Source: Patescibacteria group bacterium
GTDB taxonomy: Bacteria; Patescibacteriota; Patescibacteriia; JAHIZJ01
DNA: 39,321 nt
Direction of reading: 5' to 3'
Assembly: GCA_018814765.1 (NCBI GenBank)
Contig: JAHIZJ010000027.1
Coordinates: 1-39,321 of the forward strand
Below are positions 19,832-26,876 of this stretch, piece by piece. The notes below the pieces were generated by a model that did no database searches, was not told where the DNA came from, and saw only the letters and a list, made by a program, of their open reading frames with translations. Within the stretch, counting starts at the first letter, position 1, and every line of letters starts with the position of its first letter. The translations under genes were made by a program, and so were the position numbers.

Positions 19832-20101
19832 ATGGCTATTGAGAAAAAGAAAAAGGAAGAACTGATTAAAAAATTTAAAACACATGCGCATGATACGGGT
19901 TCTTCCGAGGTTCAAATCGCTATCTTATCAGAAGAGGTCAACGAGCTGACTGAACATCTTCAGCAGCATAAAAAAGATTTTTCGTCCCGTCGGGGACTTC
20001 TACGCAAGGTCGGTCAGCGCCGACGTCTTTTAAAATATTTGGAAAAGGAAAACGAAGAGAGCTACTTATCTTTAATTAAAAAACTTAAACTAAAAAGATG
20101 A
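19832..20101 (+). CDS. rpsO: 30S ribosomal protein S15
   Basis: DTGSSEVQIAIL...HKKDFSSRRGL. Confidence 0.98.
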   Translation: MAIEKKKKEELIKKFKTHAHDTGSSEVQIAILSEEVNELTEHLQQHKKDFSSRRGLLRKVGQRRRLLKYLEKENEESYLSLIKKLKLKR

Positions 20102-20697
20102 TAAAACATTCGGACCAACGAGTCGGTGTATTCGTTGATGTCCAGAACTTGTACTATTCAGCTAAGAATATCTATAATTCAAAAGTTAACTTCGGTGAAA
20201 TATTAAATACAGCTATTGCCGGACGAAAATTAATTCGCGCGTTTGCCTATGTTGTCAGAGCTGAGGCCCCGGAAGAGCAAAGTTTTTTTGATGCCTTGAG
20301 CAAGCAAGGGTTTGAACTACGCATGAAAGATTTACAGATTTTTTTCGGTGGTCAGAAAAAAGGAGACTGGGACGTGGGCATTACAATTGATGCCATAAGG
20401 CTATCAGACAAGCTTGACGTGGTGGTTTTAGTCAGTGGTGATGGTGACTATATTCCTCTGGTGGAGTATTTGAAGTTTTCCGGCCAGCAGGTTGAGGTGA
20501 TTGCTTATCAGAAGTCCTCATCCTCGAAGCTTATCGAAGCGGCTGATGATTTTATTGATTTATGCCTTGATGAAAATAAATATTTAATCCGTGGCAGCAA
20601 AAAAGCTTTTAACCTAAAGCGGCTGGTAAACCCGATTCAAAGAGTTACACGACCACGGCGCAGAACAGACAAAATTCAAAAACCAAACATTACGTAA
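20098..20697 (+). CDS. NYN domain protein (LabA/DUF88)
   Basis: FVDVQNLY, KGDWDV, SGDGDY, ADDFIDL. Confidence 0.92.
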   Translation: MIKHSDQRVGVFVDVQNLYYSAKNIYNSKVNFGEILNTAIAGRKLIRAFAYVVRAEAPEEQSFFDALSKQGFELRMKDLQIFFGGQKKGDWDVGITIDAIRLSDKLDVVVLVSGDGDYIPLVEYLKFSGQQVEVIAYQKSSSSKLIEAADDFIDLCLDENKYLIRGSKKAFNLKRLVNPIQRVTRPRRRTDKIQKPNIT

Positions 20698-20799
20698 ATT
20701 ACTAATTAATATCATCCTGGTCCCCGGACCAACAGGCTTTTATGAAACTATACTGAAAGTCTGGAGTCCGTGGGGCAGGTGTTTAAAGGGGTAACTGAC

Positions 20800-23052
20800 A
20801 TGTCAGTTCAAAAATTTGAGACCGATATTGGCGGTCGCAAGATGACAGTTGAAGTCGGTAAATTTGCCGGCCAAGCTGATGGCGCTTGTACTGTCCGCTA
20901 CGGTGACACCGTTGTACTTGCTACTGCGGTGCTTAGTGATTCCATCCGAGAAGGAATTGATTACTTCCCATTGATGGTGGATTATGAAGAACGGCTCTAT
21001 GCAGCCGGTAAGATCAAGGGTTCGCGCTTTATCAAACGCGAGGGACGACCAACCGATGAAGCGGTATTGACCTCGCGGCTGGTTGACCGCTCTATCAGAC
21101 CATTTTTCGATCCAGTCATTCGTAATGATGTTCAAGTTGTCATTACAGTTTTTTCAGTTGATCAGGAAAACGATCCAGACGTTCCAGCTCTTGTAGCTGC
21201 CTCTTGCGCTTTAATGATTTCGGATATTCCCTGGAATGGCCCGGTCGCCGGTGTGCGTGTTGGTCAGATCAACGATGAATGGGTTCTCAATCCCTCATAT
21301 GAAGCACGGGAGAAATCAGCACTGGATTTATTTGTAGTAGAGAATGATGGCAAAATAGTCATGCTTGAGGCCGGTGGCCAGGAAGTTTCGGAAAAGACTA
21401 TGGTAGAAGCTTTGAAGTATAGCCAGAAACATATTAAGAAAATTGTTGAGTTAATTGCAGAAGTACAATCCAATCTGGGAAAAAAGAAGATTGTTCCCGC
21501 AAGCACTATAGTTGAGTCAGCCGATGTCTTGATTAATAATAAGGTTATGGAGTATAGTCAGGAGCGCATCGTTGATATCATAAAGATTAAAGACAAGGCC
21601 GAACGTGAAGAAAAAACCAAACAGTTAATGGATGATCTTGAAGTCAAGCTCAAAGATGACAACGAAGTAACTAAAGAGATGCGTGTTCAAGCGCCTCGCA
21701 TAGTAGACAGGTTACTAGAAACAGCAGTCCGAAAAGTGGTTCTTGAGACGGGAAAGCGAGTTGATGGTCGTGCCATCGATGAACTTAGACCGCTTGAATC
21801 TGAAGTAAGTGTTCTTCCTCGGACCCACGGAACAGGCCTGTTTAATCGGGGTGAAACCCAGGTTCTTTCAATTGTTACCCTTGGTTCACCAGGTGATGAG
21901 CAGCTACTCGACACGATGGAAGAGAGTGGCAAAAAACGCTACATGCATCATTATAACTTTCCGGCTTTTTCGGTCGGTGAAACTGCGCCATTGCGTGGTC
22001 CTAGCCGTCGGGATATTGGTCACGGGGCTCTGGCAGAGAAGGCTCTTGTGCCCGTTCTGCCAAACCAAGAAGACTTTCCATATACCATTAGAGTTGTTTC
22101 AGAAGTGCTTTCGTCAAATGGATCAAGCTCAATGGCTTCTACTTGCGGATCGACTCTTGCCTTGATGGATGCAGGCGTACCCATCAGCAAACCGGTGGCT
22201 GGCATTTCAATCGGTATGATGTCAGACTCAAAATCAGGTGAATATAAGATTCTAACAGATATACAGGGACTGGAAGACCACGTGGGAGATATGGATTTCA
22301 AAGTGGCCGGAACAAAAGACGGGATTACCGCGATACAGCTTGATGTAAAAAACGATGGTTTGACCAACGAACAATGTGCCGAGACACTGGAGCGTGCTAA
22401 AATAGCTCGAGAGCAAATCCTTGATGTGATAACCACAGCTATAAAAGAGCCAAGAGCCGAGCTTTCACAGTATGCACCAAGAATAACTACGCTAAGGATT
22501 GATCCTGATAAGATCCGAAATGTTATTGGTAAGGGTGGTGAGACGATTAATGGAATCATCGATAACTGTGGTGGAAAAGATGTGACCAAGATTGATATAG
22601 AAGATGATGGTCTGGTCATGGTTACTTCACACAGCTCTGAAATGGCCGAACGAGCTATAACCACAATTAAAGATTTAACTCGTGAGCTAAAGGTTGGCGA
22701 AGAATTTGATGGAACGGTTACACAGATCATGACTGATCGAAATACCGGCAAGGAAATTGGCGCCATCGTCGAAGTTCTACCGGGCAAGGACGGCATGGTT
22801 CATATCTCTGAACTGTCAGCCAAAAGGGTTGAAAAAATCGAAGACGTAGTCAAAGTCGGTGATCCACTCAAAGTAAAAGTGGTCGCAGTTGATGCAGAGC
22901 GCGATCGAATAAGTCTCTCTCACCGAGCCTTAACCGAAAGCGATGAAGACCGGGAAAGACGCAAACAGCAACAGCGCGAACGCCGACCGTTCAATAGTCA
23001 TCGTGGCGGTGGCGGTGGATACCGTAATGATAGAGGATCACGAAGCAGATAA
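20800..23052 (+). CDS. pnp: Polyribonucleotide nucleotidyltransferase
   Basis: Two RNase PH domains, SNGSSSMAS, GDMDFKVAG, KH and S1 domains. Confidence 0.98.
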   Translation: MSVQKFETDIGGRKMTVEVGKFAGQADGACTVRYGDTVVLATAVLSDSIREGIDYFPLMVDYEERLYAAGKIKGSRFIKREGRPTDEAVLTSRLVDRSIRPFFDPVIRNDVQVVITVFSVDQENDPDVPALVAASCALMISDIPWNGPVAGVRVGQINDEWVLNPSYEAREKSALDLFVVENDGKIVMLEAGGQEVSEKTMVEALKYSQKHIKKIVELIAEVQSNLGKKKIVPASTIVESADVLINNKVMEYSQERIVDIIKIKDKAEREEKTKQLMDDLEVKLKDDNEVTKEMRVQAPRIVDRLLETAVRKVVLETGKRVDGRAIDELRPLESEVSVLPRTHGTGLFNRGETQVLSIVTLGSPGDEQLLDTMEESGKKRYMHHYNFPAFSVGETAPLRGPSRRDIGHGALAEKALVPVLPNQEDFPYTIRVVSEVLSSNGSSSMASTCGSTLALMDAGVPISKPVAGISIGMMSDSKSGEYKILTDIQGLEDHVGDMDFKVAGTKDGITAIQLDVKNDGLTNEQCAETLERAKIAREQILDVITTAIKEPRAELSQYAPRITTLRIDPDKIRNVIGKGGETINGIIDNCGGKDVTKIDIEDDGLVMVTSHSSEMAERAITTIKDLTRELKVGEEFDGTVTQIMTDRNTGKEIGAIVEVLPGKDGMVHISELSAKRVEKIEDVVKVGDPLKVKVVAVDAERDRISLSHRALTESDEDRERRKQQQRERRPFNSHRGGGGGYRNDRGSRSR

Positions 23053-23062
23053 TTAGATATAT

Positions 23063-23094
23063 AACAGAGCCGGGTCGTTGAGACCCGGTTTTGT
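23063..23094 (+). terminator. pnp terminator
   Basis: acagagccgggtc-gttga-gacccggttttgt. Confidence 0.75.
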
Positions 23095-23101
23095 GATCTA
23101 C

Positions 23102-23130
23102 TTGACCTTATTATAAAAATATCATAAAAT
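23102..23130 (+). promoter_or_regulatory. Sigma70-type promoter of the RT locus
   Basis: TTGACC-N17-TAAAAT. Confidence 0.65.
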
Positions 23131-23136
23131 AAGGAA

Positions 23137-23445
23137 TGCCATACAATATGGTGGTGACGTTGCGTCATCAATGATCATTGAACCTATTAAATATTCACCT
23201 CCTCATTTCGCGCGGTATCCGCGTCCCCGAAAGGGGTCATTTTTCTGGGGCAGGAGATTGATGTGAAGTTACTTCTCTGTAGTTGTTAATTAAAACCATG
23301 TCATCAATTATGTTATCTTCTTTACCAAATAGAAGTAGAATCATAGTTGTATACTTTACGCAATACCTGTTATCCAGTAAGGCAGTAGTTTTAGTATGCT
23401 GTCTTTTAAGGATTCGTTTCTTATTCCTAAAAGATCATTAACAAA
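23137..23445 (+). ncRNA. Candidate RT-associated structured ncRNA (msr/msd-like)
   Basis: No ORF; serial hairpins ccata/tatgg, ggtgacg/cgtcatc, cgcgg/ccgcg, cccc-gaaa-gggg, caattatg/catagttg; long-range ttgttaat/attaacaa. Confidence 0.6.
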
Positions 23446-23462
23446 TTAAAGGGGGTGATAAA

Positions 23463-23675
23463 ATGGAAAATAATAGGTGGATAAAGATAGAACAACACCG
23501 TACCACTACTACACTGTTAATCAAGTACAACAGAAAATCCAAAAGGCCAAAATTGAGAGAAAACCCAGTGTTGAAGGTATTAAGTGCTGTAATAGCAAGA
23601 GTGATAATGAGTGTTCTAAGAATTCCTTACAAATTAACTCGTCTTATACAAACAGACGAGAATAATATATGTTAA
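23463..23675 (+). CDS. Small basic hypothetical protein overlapping the RT start
   Basis: Strong RBS AAAGGGGGTGA; 70 aa; an alternative overlapping frame (23477..23665) is also open. Confidence 0.45.
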   Translation: MENNRWIKIEQHRTTTTLLIKYNRKSKRPKLRENPVLKVLSAVIARVIMSVLRIPYKLTRLIQTDENNIC

Positions 23676-24596
23676 AAATAAATCATTTATCACAGTTGTC
23701 TAATTTAATAAAGACTCCCGTTTCTGTAATACGAGAGTTAATTAAGGTTCGTCAGAACCTTTATAGGTTAAAAGTTGAAAAGAAGAAAGATGGATCGGAT
23801 AGAATCTTGCATATTCCTAGCCCTGAGTTAAAAACTACACAGAAAAAGATAAATAGAAATATCTCAAACTTTTTAAAGCTCCCTAGTTATATTCACTCTC
23901 AGTCTGGGCATTCACATGTTCACCATGCAATGAGTCACATTGGTCGGCCGATGGTATATGTATTTGATATCGAGGATTTTTTTCCTAGCATTACAGGTAG
24001 AATGTTAAAAAAAATATTAATGAAGCATGGCATGAGTGAGATAGTTGCAAACTCTATAACAAAGTTATGTACATATAGCGGCTTTCCTCAAGGAAGAAAA
24101 AAAAATTTGTTAGAAATTTTCTTCCACAAGGAGCACCGACTAGTCCAGCACTTGCCACAATGGTTGCTACAAGAATAGATAGTCGACTGGCTAGAATGTG
24201 TGAAAAAAATAATTGGGTCTATTCAAGATATGCTGATGATTTAGCAATATCTGGCGGAACAGGAATTAAAAAAGCCAGGAATACGATAGAGAAAATTATT
24301 ATGGATGAAGGCTTCTTTATTAAAAAAGCTAAAATAGAAATGATCTTACCAAAAGAAGGGAAAATACTTGTTGGACTCCGCATTGTAAAAAATCAGGTAT
24401 TGTTACCAAGAAGTTATTACAAGAATTTAAGGTCGATGATATTCAAGTTTAATAAAGGCATAGAGGGCGCGAAGCCCAAAGAGACAAACTTAGAATATCC
24501 ATCCAATCTAAGCTTGCATATGCTTTGTACATTGAAAAATTCTTTAGTACAAATGGCAAATATTCGAGACTATCCGCTACAGTCTCTATAACATAG
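23669..24596 (+). pseudogene. Retron-like reverse transcriptase, split across reading frames
   Basis: KKDGSDRILHIP..LK..Q, HAMSH (NAxxH-like), DIEDFFPSI; in the -1 frame LPQGAPTSP, YSRYADDL and LVGL (VTG-like). Confidence 0.88.
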
Positions 24597-24739
24597 TATT
24601 ACATTGCATGTGAAAGTAATTTGGCGACCTTGAAACAATATATTTCGAATATATGATAAGTTTAGTTCGGGAAAATATCGATCTTAAATAGGTCCGACTT
24701 TTTATTTACTCTAATAGGATTATTTGTTAGAGTAACAGT

Positions 24740-25321
24740 ATGATCATATCCATATCAGGTAAGCCGGGCTCAGGAAAAAGCTCAGTTGCTAAGGCGATTG
24801 CTAAAGAGTTTGGACTGGAACGATATTACATGGGCAGACTTTGGCGCGAGAAGGCTCGTGAGAAAGGCTTAACATTAGTTGAAGGGCTGATAGAAGGTGA
24901 GACAGACTCCGTTACAGACAAAGAAATAGATGACTATCAGATAAAGCTCGGTCAGACCAAAGATGATTTCGTTATAGAAGGCCGAACCTCATTTCACTTC
25001 ATTCCTCAATCATATAAGATATACCTGGATGTGGAGCCGGAAGAAGGGGCCAAGCGCATCTGGGGCGACCTGCAAAAGAACGCAGATAAAAGAAACGAAG
25101 CTCAGCAATTAAACAGCGTTGACGATGTGATAAAAAGCGTAGCCAGACGTATTAAAAGCAGTCAAATACGTTACCGGAAGTACTACAATATAGATGTATT
25201 TGATCCAAAAAATTATGATTTTTATCTGGACACAACTAAGATAGATAAGCCAGGTGTGATAAAAAAAGTTATTGAACAAATAAAAAAAGATGTGGTCACT
25301 AGAATCAAAGAAAGGAATTGA
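24740..25321 (+). CDS. cmk: Cytidylate kinase, archaeal-type (AAA family)
   Basis: ISGKPGSGKS, VIEGR, RYRKYYNID, YDFYLDT. Confidence 0.85.
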   Translation: MIISISGKPGSGKSSVAKAIAKEFGLERYYMGRLWREKAREKGLTLVEGLIEGETDSVTDKEIDDYQIKLGQTKDDFVIEGRTSFHFIPQSYKIYLDVEPEEGAKRIWGDLQKNADKRNEAQQLNSVDDVIKSVARRIKSSQIRYRKYYNIDVFDPKNYDFYLDTTKIDKPGVIKKVIEQIKKDVVTRIKERN

Positions 25322-26876
25322 TAAACAGGCGGTAATCGCGCTAATTGGGGGGTTTTTTGTTATTGTGATAATTATAGTCCTTACTGTTGTTATTGAAAAA
25401 AATAATCCATTTAATGGTCAGGGGGCATTTGATCGTTTAATACCCAGCCAGTCACAGTTGTATATACACGCTGATATAAGCAGGATACCAAAAGATAGTG
25501 AATCTGTTGCTAACGAGGAGCTGACTAAGTTTGTCCTAAATGGTGAGCAGGAGCTAAAAAGGCTGATGCCCGGAGGGATTAACCTGACTGTTTTTGCATC
25601 TAATCTTAACAATGAATTGGCGTTTTTCAAGTTAACCGAAGGCTATGGCTTATTGGTCAGAGTAAAATCAGAGGAGCAGTTTCGTGAGTTTATGGCTGAT
25701 TCGTTTAAGGATGAAATAAAGAGTGAGGAGTTTGAAAGTACCAAGATAGTTACACAGACCGCAGATAGTTCTATCAACCTTAGTTGGGCTCGGGTGAATA
25801 AAAAAGTTTATATAATTGCCAGCACAACTGATGTAATTAAAGAAGTTATTTCCGTTGATAAGAAAAAGACAGAGTCGATCGAAGCGCGAATCAAAGTATA
25901 TAATCCCGGTGCTCATTTTATCTATGGGATAGCTAACCCAAAACAATTGGTTGGTACATATAATATTCTTGATTCTATCACTGAGATAGGTTCACAAAGT
26001 CTGAATGAATTCACTGAAACATATTTTGACCTGGACACAAAGGATGGAATGCTTTTTGGAACGATCAGTAATTATGCACCGACCTTGCTAGAAAGATTAA
26101 CTGCCGGTGACTTGCCAAACATTTACAGACAGTCAAGCAGGTACATGCCGGATGATTTGAATCTGGCTTGGCTAAATACAAATCCCGGTGAGTTCATTGA
26201 TAATCTGCAGATGTTTCAACTAGCTTTTCCCGACGAACTGAACTTTGACTGGCCAGACTTTGTAAATCAGGCGCTGGGCTTTGATTGGGAAAAAAACATC
26301 TTGCCTCTTCTTGACATTCAGACCGATATATATGTTGCTCCAACGGATCAGCCAGATGATATGAGTAAACCATTTGTTATTTCCTTTATCCCAGACGAGT
26401 TGGAACAATTGACGGAGACACAAAATAATTTAGAAGCAGTCCTAAGACAAGTACTGGGAACTATGTATCCCAGTCGCTTAGAAAAGATATTATCCGACGG
26501 TAGTAGTGTAGTTGAGCTACTGCCAAATCCCCAAGCAGGTGAGACGACACAGTATCAATATGAAGATCAAACGATTGATAATCTTTGGCGAATTGATTTA
26601 CCGAAATCCGAGATGGTCATAGTTTTTGGTCAGCTGGATAAGCGGATAATCTTTTCGAACTCTACAGAGTTGGTTGATTCTATAATCCAGCAATCGGCTA
26701 TAGATACTGAAGCCACACCCAAGTGTCTGGAAGAAATAAAAGGCAGTCGTCTAATCGTTCTGGATAATAAGCAGATTGAGTCACTAAATTCGCTCGGGCA
26801 TAACATTTCACATCTCTATATAGGAGACGGAATCACAGATAATAAGATTTTGTTAAATTATTGTCTGGAATTCTAA
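25290..26876 (+). CDS. Hypothetical membrane-anchored protein (DUF3352-like)
   Basis: 528 aa with N-terminal TM helix; family call tentative. Confidence 0.7.
   Translation: MWSLESKKGIDKQAVIALIGGFFVIVIIIVLTVVIEKNNPFNGQGAFDRLIPSQSQLYIHADISRIPKDSESVANEELTKFVLNGEQELKRLMPGGINLTVFASNLNNELAFFKLTEGYGLLVRVKSEEQFREFMADSFKDEIKSEEFESTKIVTQTADSSINLSWARVNKKVYIIASTTDVIKEVISVDKKKTESIEARIKVYNPGAHFIYGIANPKQLVGTYNILDSITEIGSQSLNEFTETYFDLDTKDGMLFGTISNYAPTLLERLTAGDLPNIYRQSSRYMPDDLNLAWLNTNPGEFIDNLQMFQLAFPDELNFDWPDFVNQALGFDWEKNILPLLDIQTDIYVAPTDQPDDMSKPFVISFIPDELEQLTETQNNLEAVLRQVLGTMYPSRLEKILSDGSSVVELLPNPQAGETTQYQYEDQTIDNLWRIDLPKSEMVIVFGQLDKRIIFSNSTELVDSIIQQSAIDTEATPKCLEEIKGSRLIVLDNKQIESLNSLGHNISHLYIGDGITDNKILLNYCLEF

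Follow-up and report, generated by a model that had tools for sequence, protein, structure and literature searches.

Type VI was the last type of retron without a mechanism, and preprints of 2025 and 2026 describe one in which the structured RNA also serves as the mRNA for a masked toxin. For Retron-Vpa2, Zhang et al. (10.1101/2025.10.22.683967) describe a hybrid RNA of about 470 nt made up of the msr-msd region and a repressed small toxic protein, with the ribosome-binding site (RBS) as well as the start codon buried in stems, and with multicopy single-stranded DNA (msDNA) required to derepress translation. Garcia-Rodriguez et al. (10.64898/2026.04.27.721009) give the type VI gene order as small protein, helix-turn-helix (HTH) protein and reverse transcriptase (RT), with the HTH gene present in about 78% of 158 entries; they describe an RBS of the small protein sequestered in a basal stem, a variable internal stretch, and small proteins that vary greatly between clusters, and the type VI retrons tested include an example from Candidatus Levybacteria. 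Here we compare these systems with an AT-rich cassette of about 1.5 kb (23100-24625) found between the terminator of pnp and the promoter of cmk in a Patescibacteria group bacterium (GenBank assembly GCA_018814765.1, contig JAHIZJ010000027.1, positions 1 to 39,321; this whole stretch of 39,321 nucleotides is called the window). Judging from sequence comparison, we consider it reasonably probable that the cassette is a decayed member of a rare type-VI-like retron lineage, seen so far in bacteria of the candidate phyla radiation.

An earlier note on this DNA, made from its letters alone, had proposed a possibly undescribed module of an RT with an upstream RNA. Much of its description holds. The unit is AT-rich (GC fraction 0.32-0.37 over 23050-24850 vs 0.41-0.51 in the flanks), begins with a sigma70-like promoter and two small adjacent stem-loops, encodes a basic protein of 70 aa and an RT in which YADD is present beside variant region X and Y motifs, and has neither a single long msd hairpin, the variable region being without one, nor an effector of any known family. 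The RT of about 300 aa is of retron type, as proposed, but is not the single open reading frame (ORF) it was taken for, since it lies in three pieces in three frames.

A conserved leader RNA in four loci

Three other loci, L013, L029 and L058, have the same layout as the window: a structured leader of about 325 nt, a small ORF and an RT gene. The leader folds better than shuffled sequences (z -3.8 for 23102-23470, z -2.9 for 23125-23680), and the earlier note's pairing of a retron-like RT with a structured upstream RNA is supported. The features of the window cassette upstream of the RT are given below. Helices were registered by hand through their coordinates because the MAFFT alignment misregistered several of them. 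Shine-Dalgarno is abbreviated SD; SL, IR and HP designate stem-loops, inverted-repeat arms and hairpins.

23102..23130, +: sigma70-like promoter TTGACC-17-TAAAAT, 10 of 12 matches; likely transcript start at about 23137-23139
23138..23152, +: SL1, first small stem-loop; a stem at the equivalent place in all four loci, of uncertain register in L013 and L058
23153..23169, +: SL2, 7-bp stem-loop immediately 5' of IR5; both-side changes in 5 of 7 pairs
23170..23179, +: IR5, 5' arm of a long-range helix (a1 equivalent), pairing with 23430-23439
23180, +: conserved G after IR5 (motif UUGA), candidate priming (branching) G
23195..23203, +: anti-SD box UCACCUCCU, pairing with the SD of the small ORF
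23210..23224, +: HP3, msr-like hairpin; a compensatory exchange of GC for AU in L029, and in L058 a stem of different sequence
23225..23236, +: HP4, msr-like hairpin, followed by a U-rich tract; flagged as terminator-like in the window, L013 and L029
23237..23429, +: variable region, presumed template (msd-like), poorly conserved and without a single long hairpin
23430..23439, +: IR3, 3' arm of the long-range helix (a2 equivalent), pairing with IR5
23450..23458, +: SD AGGGGGUGA of the small ORF, which the anti-SD masks
23463..23675, +: small ORF resembling the type VI small protein, 70 aa and basic (net charge +10); residues 36-50 form a hydrophobic or amphipathic stretch
23638..23660, +: hairpin at the 3' end of the small ORF, before the RT start; stems differ in sequence yet pair in the window, L013 and L029

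Equivalent promoters with 11 of 12 matches precede the leaders of L013 and L029, and in these two loci, as in the window, the -10 box ends exactly 7 nt before SL1; a promoter scan of the L058 leader found none. SL2 could be compared in five sequences, the fifth being the leader of L023, a canonical type VI locus, and 1 of its 35 cells is broken. Its loop is AUU in L029, L013, L058 and L023 and UUG in the window, and it abuts IR5 in all four loci and in L023. The IR5/IR3 helix carries compensatory changes in 4 of 10 pairs across the four loci, with 2 of 40 cells broken, including an A-A mismatch in the window. This duplex lies at the equivalent relative place in each locus, where 3-14 of 200 shuffles are as good. 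The bases that follow IR5 are GAACCU, GAAUCU, GAAUCU and GACAGG in the four loci, and L023 has CUUUGAA. In known retrons the priming G is located next to a1.

The pairing of anti-SD with SD is the closing stem of the single-sequence minimum free energy (MFE) fold in all four loci. Between HP4 and IR3 the loci diverge in length, with a variable region of 193 nt in the window vs 114-128 nt elsewhere, so that the window has about 74 nt extra. Where the small ORF ends, the RT-start hairpin of L029 and L013 contains the SD-like GGAG/GAGG of the RT in its 3' arm. Compared across the loci, as the earlier note had suggested, the upstream regions show a conserved structure. Pairs in SL2, IR5/IR3, HP3 and the RT-start hairpin change in a compensatory way, and with four sequences this is good evidence of a qualitative kind.

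The conserved layout is not the msr layout that had been proposed. The suggested second domain closed by ttgttaat/attaacaa is not conserved; it is 23170-23179 with 23430-23439 that closes the RNA in the four loci. The suggested a1/a2 pair (23130-23137 with 23622-23629) does occur in the MFE fold of the window yet has no counterpart in the other loci: 137-168 of 200 shuffles were as good in three loci and 52 of 200 in L058, and its a1 arm falls past the -10 box but ahead of where transcription probably starts. Within 23194-23267, described as a multibranch GC-rich domain, a GC-rich hairpin pair (23210-23236) is present, but the region consists of the anti-SD, two simple hairpins and a U-rich tract.

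A covariance model, R1, was built from three of the loci. Run against 52 sources, it found its three seeds and weak matches in L023 and L058 only. The top match outside the seeds is the leader of L023, at 20.6 bits (E 0.015 over 291 kb), where a stem-loop with the AUU loop seen in L013, L029 and L058 is followed by CUUUGAA. A further 150 genomes of the class gave no R1 match. A class-wide motif scan picked out 14 of 401 genomes, including G378, the source of L058, and 9 of the other 13 scored at most 14.9 bits; a motif scan of viral contigs gave at least 120 stretches, 80 of which were taken as loci and held no R1 match above 16.9 bits, and a stricter RNA motif scan returned 0 matches. No Rfam family reached its gathering score in the window, and over 22950-24800, with E values up to 10 admitted, matches at chance level alone were seen.

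Direct repeats shared by the 5' domain and the variable region were also compared. In contrast to type VI, no 7-nt direct-repeat pair conserved across the loci was found; the window has a 12-nt pair and L029 an 11-nt pair, and these are the only ones. The pair in the window, GTCATCAAT(G/T)AT, lies at 23164-23175 (3' arm of SL2 and start of IR5) and 23300-23311 (variable region). It is reminiscent of the pair of repeats that has been put forward for derepression in type VI, but is absent from the other three loci.

The small ORF

In all four loci an ORF of 65-90 aa follows the SD and overlaps the start of the RT, by 7 nt in the window. Its start lies 4-7 nt past the SD, or 6-9 nt past the core AGG[G/A]GG, and the chance of each such frame being open, given base composition, is 0.0004-0.028. 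The four products are basic, with net charges of +7 to +18 and a moderately hydrophobic stretch, and the 93-aa ORF upstream of the HTH gene in L023 is likewise basic with a hydrophobic stretch. In the window the 70-aa ORF is the only one between ncRNA (noncoding RNA) and RT, and neither it nor its three counterparts gives an HTH_VI match. A search of 5.8 billion proteins, covering near lengths, found no homologue of the 70-aa product other than itself, and it has no Pfam, PADLOC or NCBIfam match. AlphaFold2, given the 4-row alignment, returned two helices with a mean predicted local distance difference test score (pLDDT) of 61.7 and a predicted template modeling score (pTM) of 0.26, a model too weak to be used. 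Because the hairpin that ends the small ORF contains or precedes the RT start, translation of the RT is probably coupled to that of the small ORF.

Short contigs from X1-X3, three Logan sources described below, match the 33 nt at 23443-23475, which hold the SD and start, with 3 differences, and diverge on both sides. They may represent the ribosome-binding region of another gene or a distant second copy of the cassette.

A retron-type RT without a clear type assignment

Both halves of the window RT match Pfam RVT_1 (28.7 and 40.5 bits). Against the PADLOC models the N-terminal half has RT_VI as its top model (96.4 bits), while the C-terminal half scores 119.5 bits with RT_II-A and 116.8 bits with RT_III-A; summed over both halves, II-A and III-A reach about 203 bits and VI 176. 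Among the top PADLOC matches listed, all are retron RT models. The top NCBIfam model is retron_St85_RT, with a score under its cut-off; Drt2 (30.3 bits, cut-off 390), Drt3a (about 20 bits, cut-off 200) and group II models (16-26 bits, cut-off 300) fall far short of theirs. The catalytic YADD is present, within SRYADDLAISG. Retron RTs are described as having NAXXH in region X, with H most conserved, and VTG in region Y, with G most conserved (PMC7736814). The window RT has HAMSH and LVG, keeping that H and that G and replacing N and T. The related proteins P0123 and P0124 likewise keep the H and the G and lack the N and T; region X is altered in L029 as well, and L058 retains VTG. By these comparisons the RT is of retron type and belongs to a clade not assigned to any type.

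Close relatives are few. An exhaustive search with the N-terminal half gave 3161 proteins at E <=0.001, and only two, the window's own product and P0123, at <=1e-30; a word-index search with the C-terminal half found nothing above 46% identity. P0123 is an intact RT, and its locus, L013, comes from a metagenome-assembled genome (MAG) titled Patescibacteria group bacterium. L029 is a metagenome contig that ends inside its RT, which is 51% identical. Among 400 other genomes of the class there was 1 further close relative, in G378 (L058), whose RT stands on zero-length branches with P0154, recorded at NCBI as from a Candidatus Kerfeldbacteria bacterium. The 400 genomes sampled from the phylum held no RT of this clade at E 1e-35, the rest of the source genome (1.38 Mb in 139 contigs) holds no second RT of the kind, and every protein of the clade is a singleton cluster. 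At least two of the three related loci are from candidate-phyla-radiation (Patescibacteria) bacteria. Phage records gave 42 matches to P0123, all below 60% identity, with 26-35% among the 8 matches listed. The intact relative in G378 adjoins an ORF for a LAGLIDADG-type homing endonuclease (L058, 2480-3124, minus strand) near the contig end, and the L058 site possibly lies within an rRNA intron region.

A FastTree phylogeny of 141 rows was built from matches of 265-420 aa among P0123-P0271 and P0001-P0059 together with four locus and window sequences. In it the window, L029, P0123 and P0124 form a group with support 99, which is joined next by L058/P0154 and P0203 (supports 99 and 98, two trees). 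For labels, 57 other proteins were named by their top PADLOC model, with no curated type references in the set; a cluster of 56 rows has 14 RT_VI labels, including canonical locus L023, which itself scores 215.5 bits with RT_VI and has an HTH_VI gene at 77.4 bits. Tree placement, which the earlier note had put forward, sets the RT among retron-type relatives, in a clade that is assignable to no PADLOC retron type.

Two frameshifts in the RT gene

The three pieces of the RT are colinear end to end with intact P0123 (328 aa) and P0124 (297 aa). Pieces and breaks are as follows.

23669..24103, +: RT piece 1 (fingers, region X, HAMSH), 53% identity to P0123
24097..24105, +: frameshift 1, -1; A9 run, read as A AAA AAA in the zero frame; contigs of three studies agree
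24100..24459, +: RT piece 2 (LPQGAPTSP, YADD, LVG), 47% identity to P0123
24453..24460, +: frameshift 2, -1; without slippery heptamer; present in contigs of two studies
24456..24596, +: RT piece 3 (C-terminal region), 51% identity to P0123 in the three-piece alignment

Piece 3 aligns with residues 286-327 of P0123 at 50% identity over 42 aa (E 8e-10), and the in-frame continuation of piece 2 has no similarity to P0123 (E 5.2). No break interrupts the relatives; this holds over the full length of P0123/L013, P0124 and L058, and for L029 up to the contig end. Logan contigs of runs X1, X2 and X3, from two studies, are identical to the window over 23000-24735 or more at a depth of 15-53. Low-depth contigs of run X4, from a third study, are identical to it over 23009-23720 and also over 23938-24420, a stretch that includes frameshift 1. 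Such contigs hide rare variants such as A10, and the assembly may itself derive from two of the studies. The window RT is most likely a pseudogene, because the two -1 frameshifts are reproduced in independent assemblies, and for the same two breaks the retron module is most likely inactive in the source genome. Frameshift 1 could in principle be bypassed by slippage, and frameshift 2 could not.

Frameshift 1 sits in a length-variable insert ahead of LPQG. A duplication, FPQG...LPQG, suggests that this insert of 13 aa arose through local duplication or insertion, and an inverted repeat, TCCTCAAGGAAGAAAA / TTTTCTTCCACAAGGA (24085-24132, 81% complementary), brackets the A9 site. An X4 contig over the start of cmk (24676-24800) differs at 10 of 125 positions, and the X4 pieces from the island are identical to the window; the discrepancy could mean a related strain whose island is identical, or the presence of a second organism that lacks the island. 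No RNA runs containing the stretch are listed.

Insertion site and neighboring genes

The gene order in the window is rpsO, a NYN-domain gene, pnp (20770-23052), the cassette and cmk (24740-25321). Both native flanks of the island are recognizable.

23070..23096, +: terminator hairpin of pnp with T-run, native left flank; the island starts just 3' of the hairpin
24630..24657, +: promoter-like site of cmk, 10 of 12 matches, native right flank

In G001 and G004, two genomes of the same family, the island is absent: pnp and cmk are spaced about 190 nt apart, and an equivalent pnp hairpin is followed directly by the promoter and start of cmk. In G003 the gap between pnp and cmk (L008, 586-1327) holds a cytochrome b5-like gene and a gene for a 145-aa membrane protein; the gap in the window is 23053-24739. 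The cassette is an insertion at a variable spot, because relatives either lack the island (G001, G004) or have other genes there (G003). Neither an integrase nor flanking repeats of the cassette were seen at the locus. In G006, of the same genus, the gap is of equal size.

The neighboring large genes (760, 1186 and 1293 aa) are intact. Upstream of pnp, the NYN-domain (RNase-like) gene at 19832-20697 overlaps by 4 nt the stop of the preceding ORF, whose 89-aa product is rpsO-like by eye, and the two together just upstream of pnp make this an RNA-metabolism cluster. At 25290-26876 a 528-aa ORF, which begins within the end of cmk, gave no match to Pfam at E 1e-5.

Proposed mechanism and rival explanations

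On the reading we favor, that of a decayed type-VI-like retron, a single promoter would give a hybrid RNA running from SL1 through the structured noncoding part into the gene of the small basic protein and then the RT. The noncoding part would be ordered as SL1, SL2, the a1-like arm with its G, the anti-SD, two msr-like hairpins, the variable region and the a2-like arm. In the resting state the anti-SD would pair with the RBS of the small gene and prevent its translation. The RT of intact relatives would use the conserved G, G23180 in the window, for priming and copy the variable region; the cDNA, or remodeling of the RNA, would free the RBS, and the small protein would be made and would harm the infected cell. 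The RT would be translated in coupling with the small ORF through the hairpin at its end. The sequences show the family of the RT, its two frameshifts, the insertion of the island and the conservation of promoter, helices and ORF; transcription, priming, cDNA synthesis, toxicity, a role in defense and the order of these events are what we infer from sequence for this model.

Several observations weigh against this reading. No HTH gene is found in the window, in L013, in L058 or upstream of the RT in L029. In the FastTree phylogeny a split with support 96 separates the clade from the RT_VI-labelled cluster, and a quick IQ-TREE run on 58 rows again places it outside that cluster, with weak deep nodes; by an approximately unbiased (AU) test, a tree uniting the clade with the V/VI cluster is not rejected (p 0.405). 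PADLOC scores across the clade are low and tied among III-A, II-A and VI, at <=205 bits, vs 390-470 bits for true III-A members. IR5/IR3 crosses anti-SD/SD, and the two cannot form in one nested fold; the RNA therefore adopts either a pseudoknot or two alternative states. The covariation comes from the four known loci, registered by hand, and is qualitative. The small proteins are barely alike (13-28% identity, top pairwise E 0.066), and their sole shared motif, Y.LTR, overlies a conserved RNA hairpin. The RNA of the window departs from the others at conserved spots, the SL2 loop and the A-A mismatch of IR5, which fits decay and at the same time weakens what can be drawn from this copy; the whole reading, moreover, is built from sequence comparison.

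The weak amino-acid conservation of the small protein would be expected if the small ORF were a leader that couples translation to the RT, with no effector function, so that the cassette would be a bare RT and ncRNA retron whose effector is absent or encoded elsewhere. It would also suit an ORF that always overlaps the RT start, with a hairpin covering the RT start or its SD, and that no family matches. But a strong SD masked by a dedicated anti-SD is kept in all four loci, all four products and the 93-aa product of L023 are basic with a hydrophobic stretch, and the small proteins of type VI, as Garcia-Rodriguez et al. describe them, also diverge greatly between clusters; we regard a mere leader ORF as unlikely, if a serious contender. 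Still less likely, in our judgment, is the classical retron logic, in which an RT-msDNA complex restrains the small toxin until phage interference with the msDNA releases it. Zhang et al. give this as the common retron mechanism. Retron-Sen3 shows that a type VI system is able to run with constitutive single-stranded DNA. A masked RBS, by contrast, points to translational control, no HTH antitoxin is present, and were the RT the antitoxin, cells should not survive its loss without silencing of the toxin as well.

The remaining two alternatives concern the RT itself. Long A runs are prone to slippage, and an RT still made by recoding, through a -1 ribosomal slip or transcriptional slippage at A9 that might serve as an on/off switch, would explain why A AAA AAA stands in the zero frame exactly at frameshift 1, where the shift needed is -1, and would find a place for the inverted repeat that flanks the site. 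Such recoding does not, however, deal with the second -1 break (24453-24460), which has no slippery heptamer and puts the true C-terminus in the third frame; the four sequenced relatives are uninterrupted (L029 up to its contig end), and the A9 run lies in a length-variable insert and is not a conserved recoding site. We judge it very improbable. Hardly credible to us is an RT of another class with an ncRNA of its own, whether DRT2- or DRT3-like (defense-associated RTs), Abi-like (abortive infection) or a group II remnant. The variant X and Y motifs and the lack of a long msd hairpin could be cited for it, but Drt2, Drt3a and group II scores are far below their cut-offs, the top PADLOC matches listed are retron models throughout, and an a1/a2-like helix is followed by a conserved G.

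A further proposal may be made tentatively, and we hold it to be possible but doubtful: that the window and the three loci represent a distinct, minimal two-gene retron lineage of candidate-phyla-radiation bacteria, without HTH, in which the small basic protein encoded in the RNA would be the sole effector, silenced by the anti-SD and released by reverse transcription, with the RT coupled to the small ORF. Such a lineage could have split off early as the sister of type VI, or could have reached its solution independently, by convergence.

Comparison with known systems

Genes with a frameshift in a poly(A) tract are one point of comparison. Programmed -1 frameshifting and transcriptional slippage are known at such tracts, and the cassette shares with these genes an A9 run with A AAA AAA in frame at the first break. 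It differs from them in that its second break is at a non-slippery site and its relatives are unbroken.

The RTs of III-A and II-A retrons give the highest summed hidden Markov model (HMM) scores, about 203 bits, and St85 is the top NCBIfam model. The window RT nevertheless reaches about 200 bits where true members have 390-470, and no phosphoribosyltransferase (PRTase), winged-helix or nucleoside deoxyribosyltransferase-like (NDT-like) gene, kinds that include the effector types of II-A, is adjacent, the neighbors being pnp and cmk. The effector types of III-A are given in Table 1 of PMC7736814.

With type VI, represented by Retron-Vpa2 and Retron-Sen3, there are differences as well as likenesses. 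The window cassette lacks the gene for a Cro/C1-type HTH protein (cluster cl2_1), which in type VI lies upstream of the RT or overlaps it, and its small ORF directly overlaps the RT start. Type VI RTs make up RT-Clade 3 of Mestre et al.; the RT of the clade lies outside the RT_VI-labelled cluster in two trees, though the AU test does not reject their union, VTG and NAXXH are altered in the inner four members of the clade, and the RT is broken in the window copy. The cassette would work like a type VI retron, yet we do not file it as a member of type VI because the HTH gene is missing and the affiliation of the RT is unclear.

The feature first noticed is real, a conserved RNA with a masked small gene, and it is less novel than proposed, since its design closely matches the type VI hybrid RNA and has already been described. 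A lineage with the RNA logic of type VI and no HTH would be a natural minimal version, and one with clear helices and a readable anti-SD could reveal the essential parts of the mechanism. It would extend the design to bacteria with ultra-small genomes, where defense systems are sparse. The broken copy in the window has its value as a pointer to intact relatives, the cassettes of L013 and L058, and as a case of decay in a retron whose RT has been lost before its RNA and small ORF.

What the cassette has in common with type VI covers both RNA and protein. An ncRNA, a small-protein gene and an RT lie in this order on one strand; a stem-loop directly abuts the 5' inverted repeat on its 5' side, a variable internal region is enclosed between the paired repeats, and the ncRNA sequesters the RBS of the small protein. 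This protein is basic and in part hydrophobic, the RT is small, at about 300 aa, the N-terminal half has RT_VI as its top PADLOC model, and R1 weakly matches the leader of canonical locus L023. As far as its sequence can be read, the cassette shares every RNA-level feature among those listed here for the type VI hybrid RNA.

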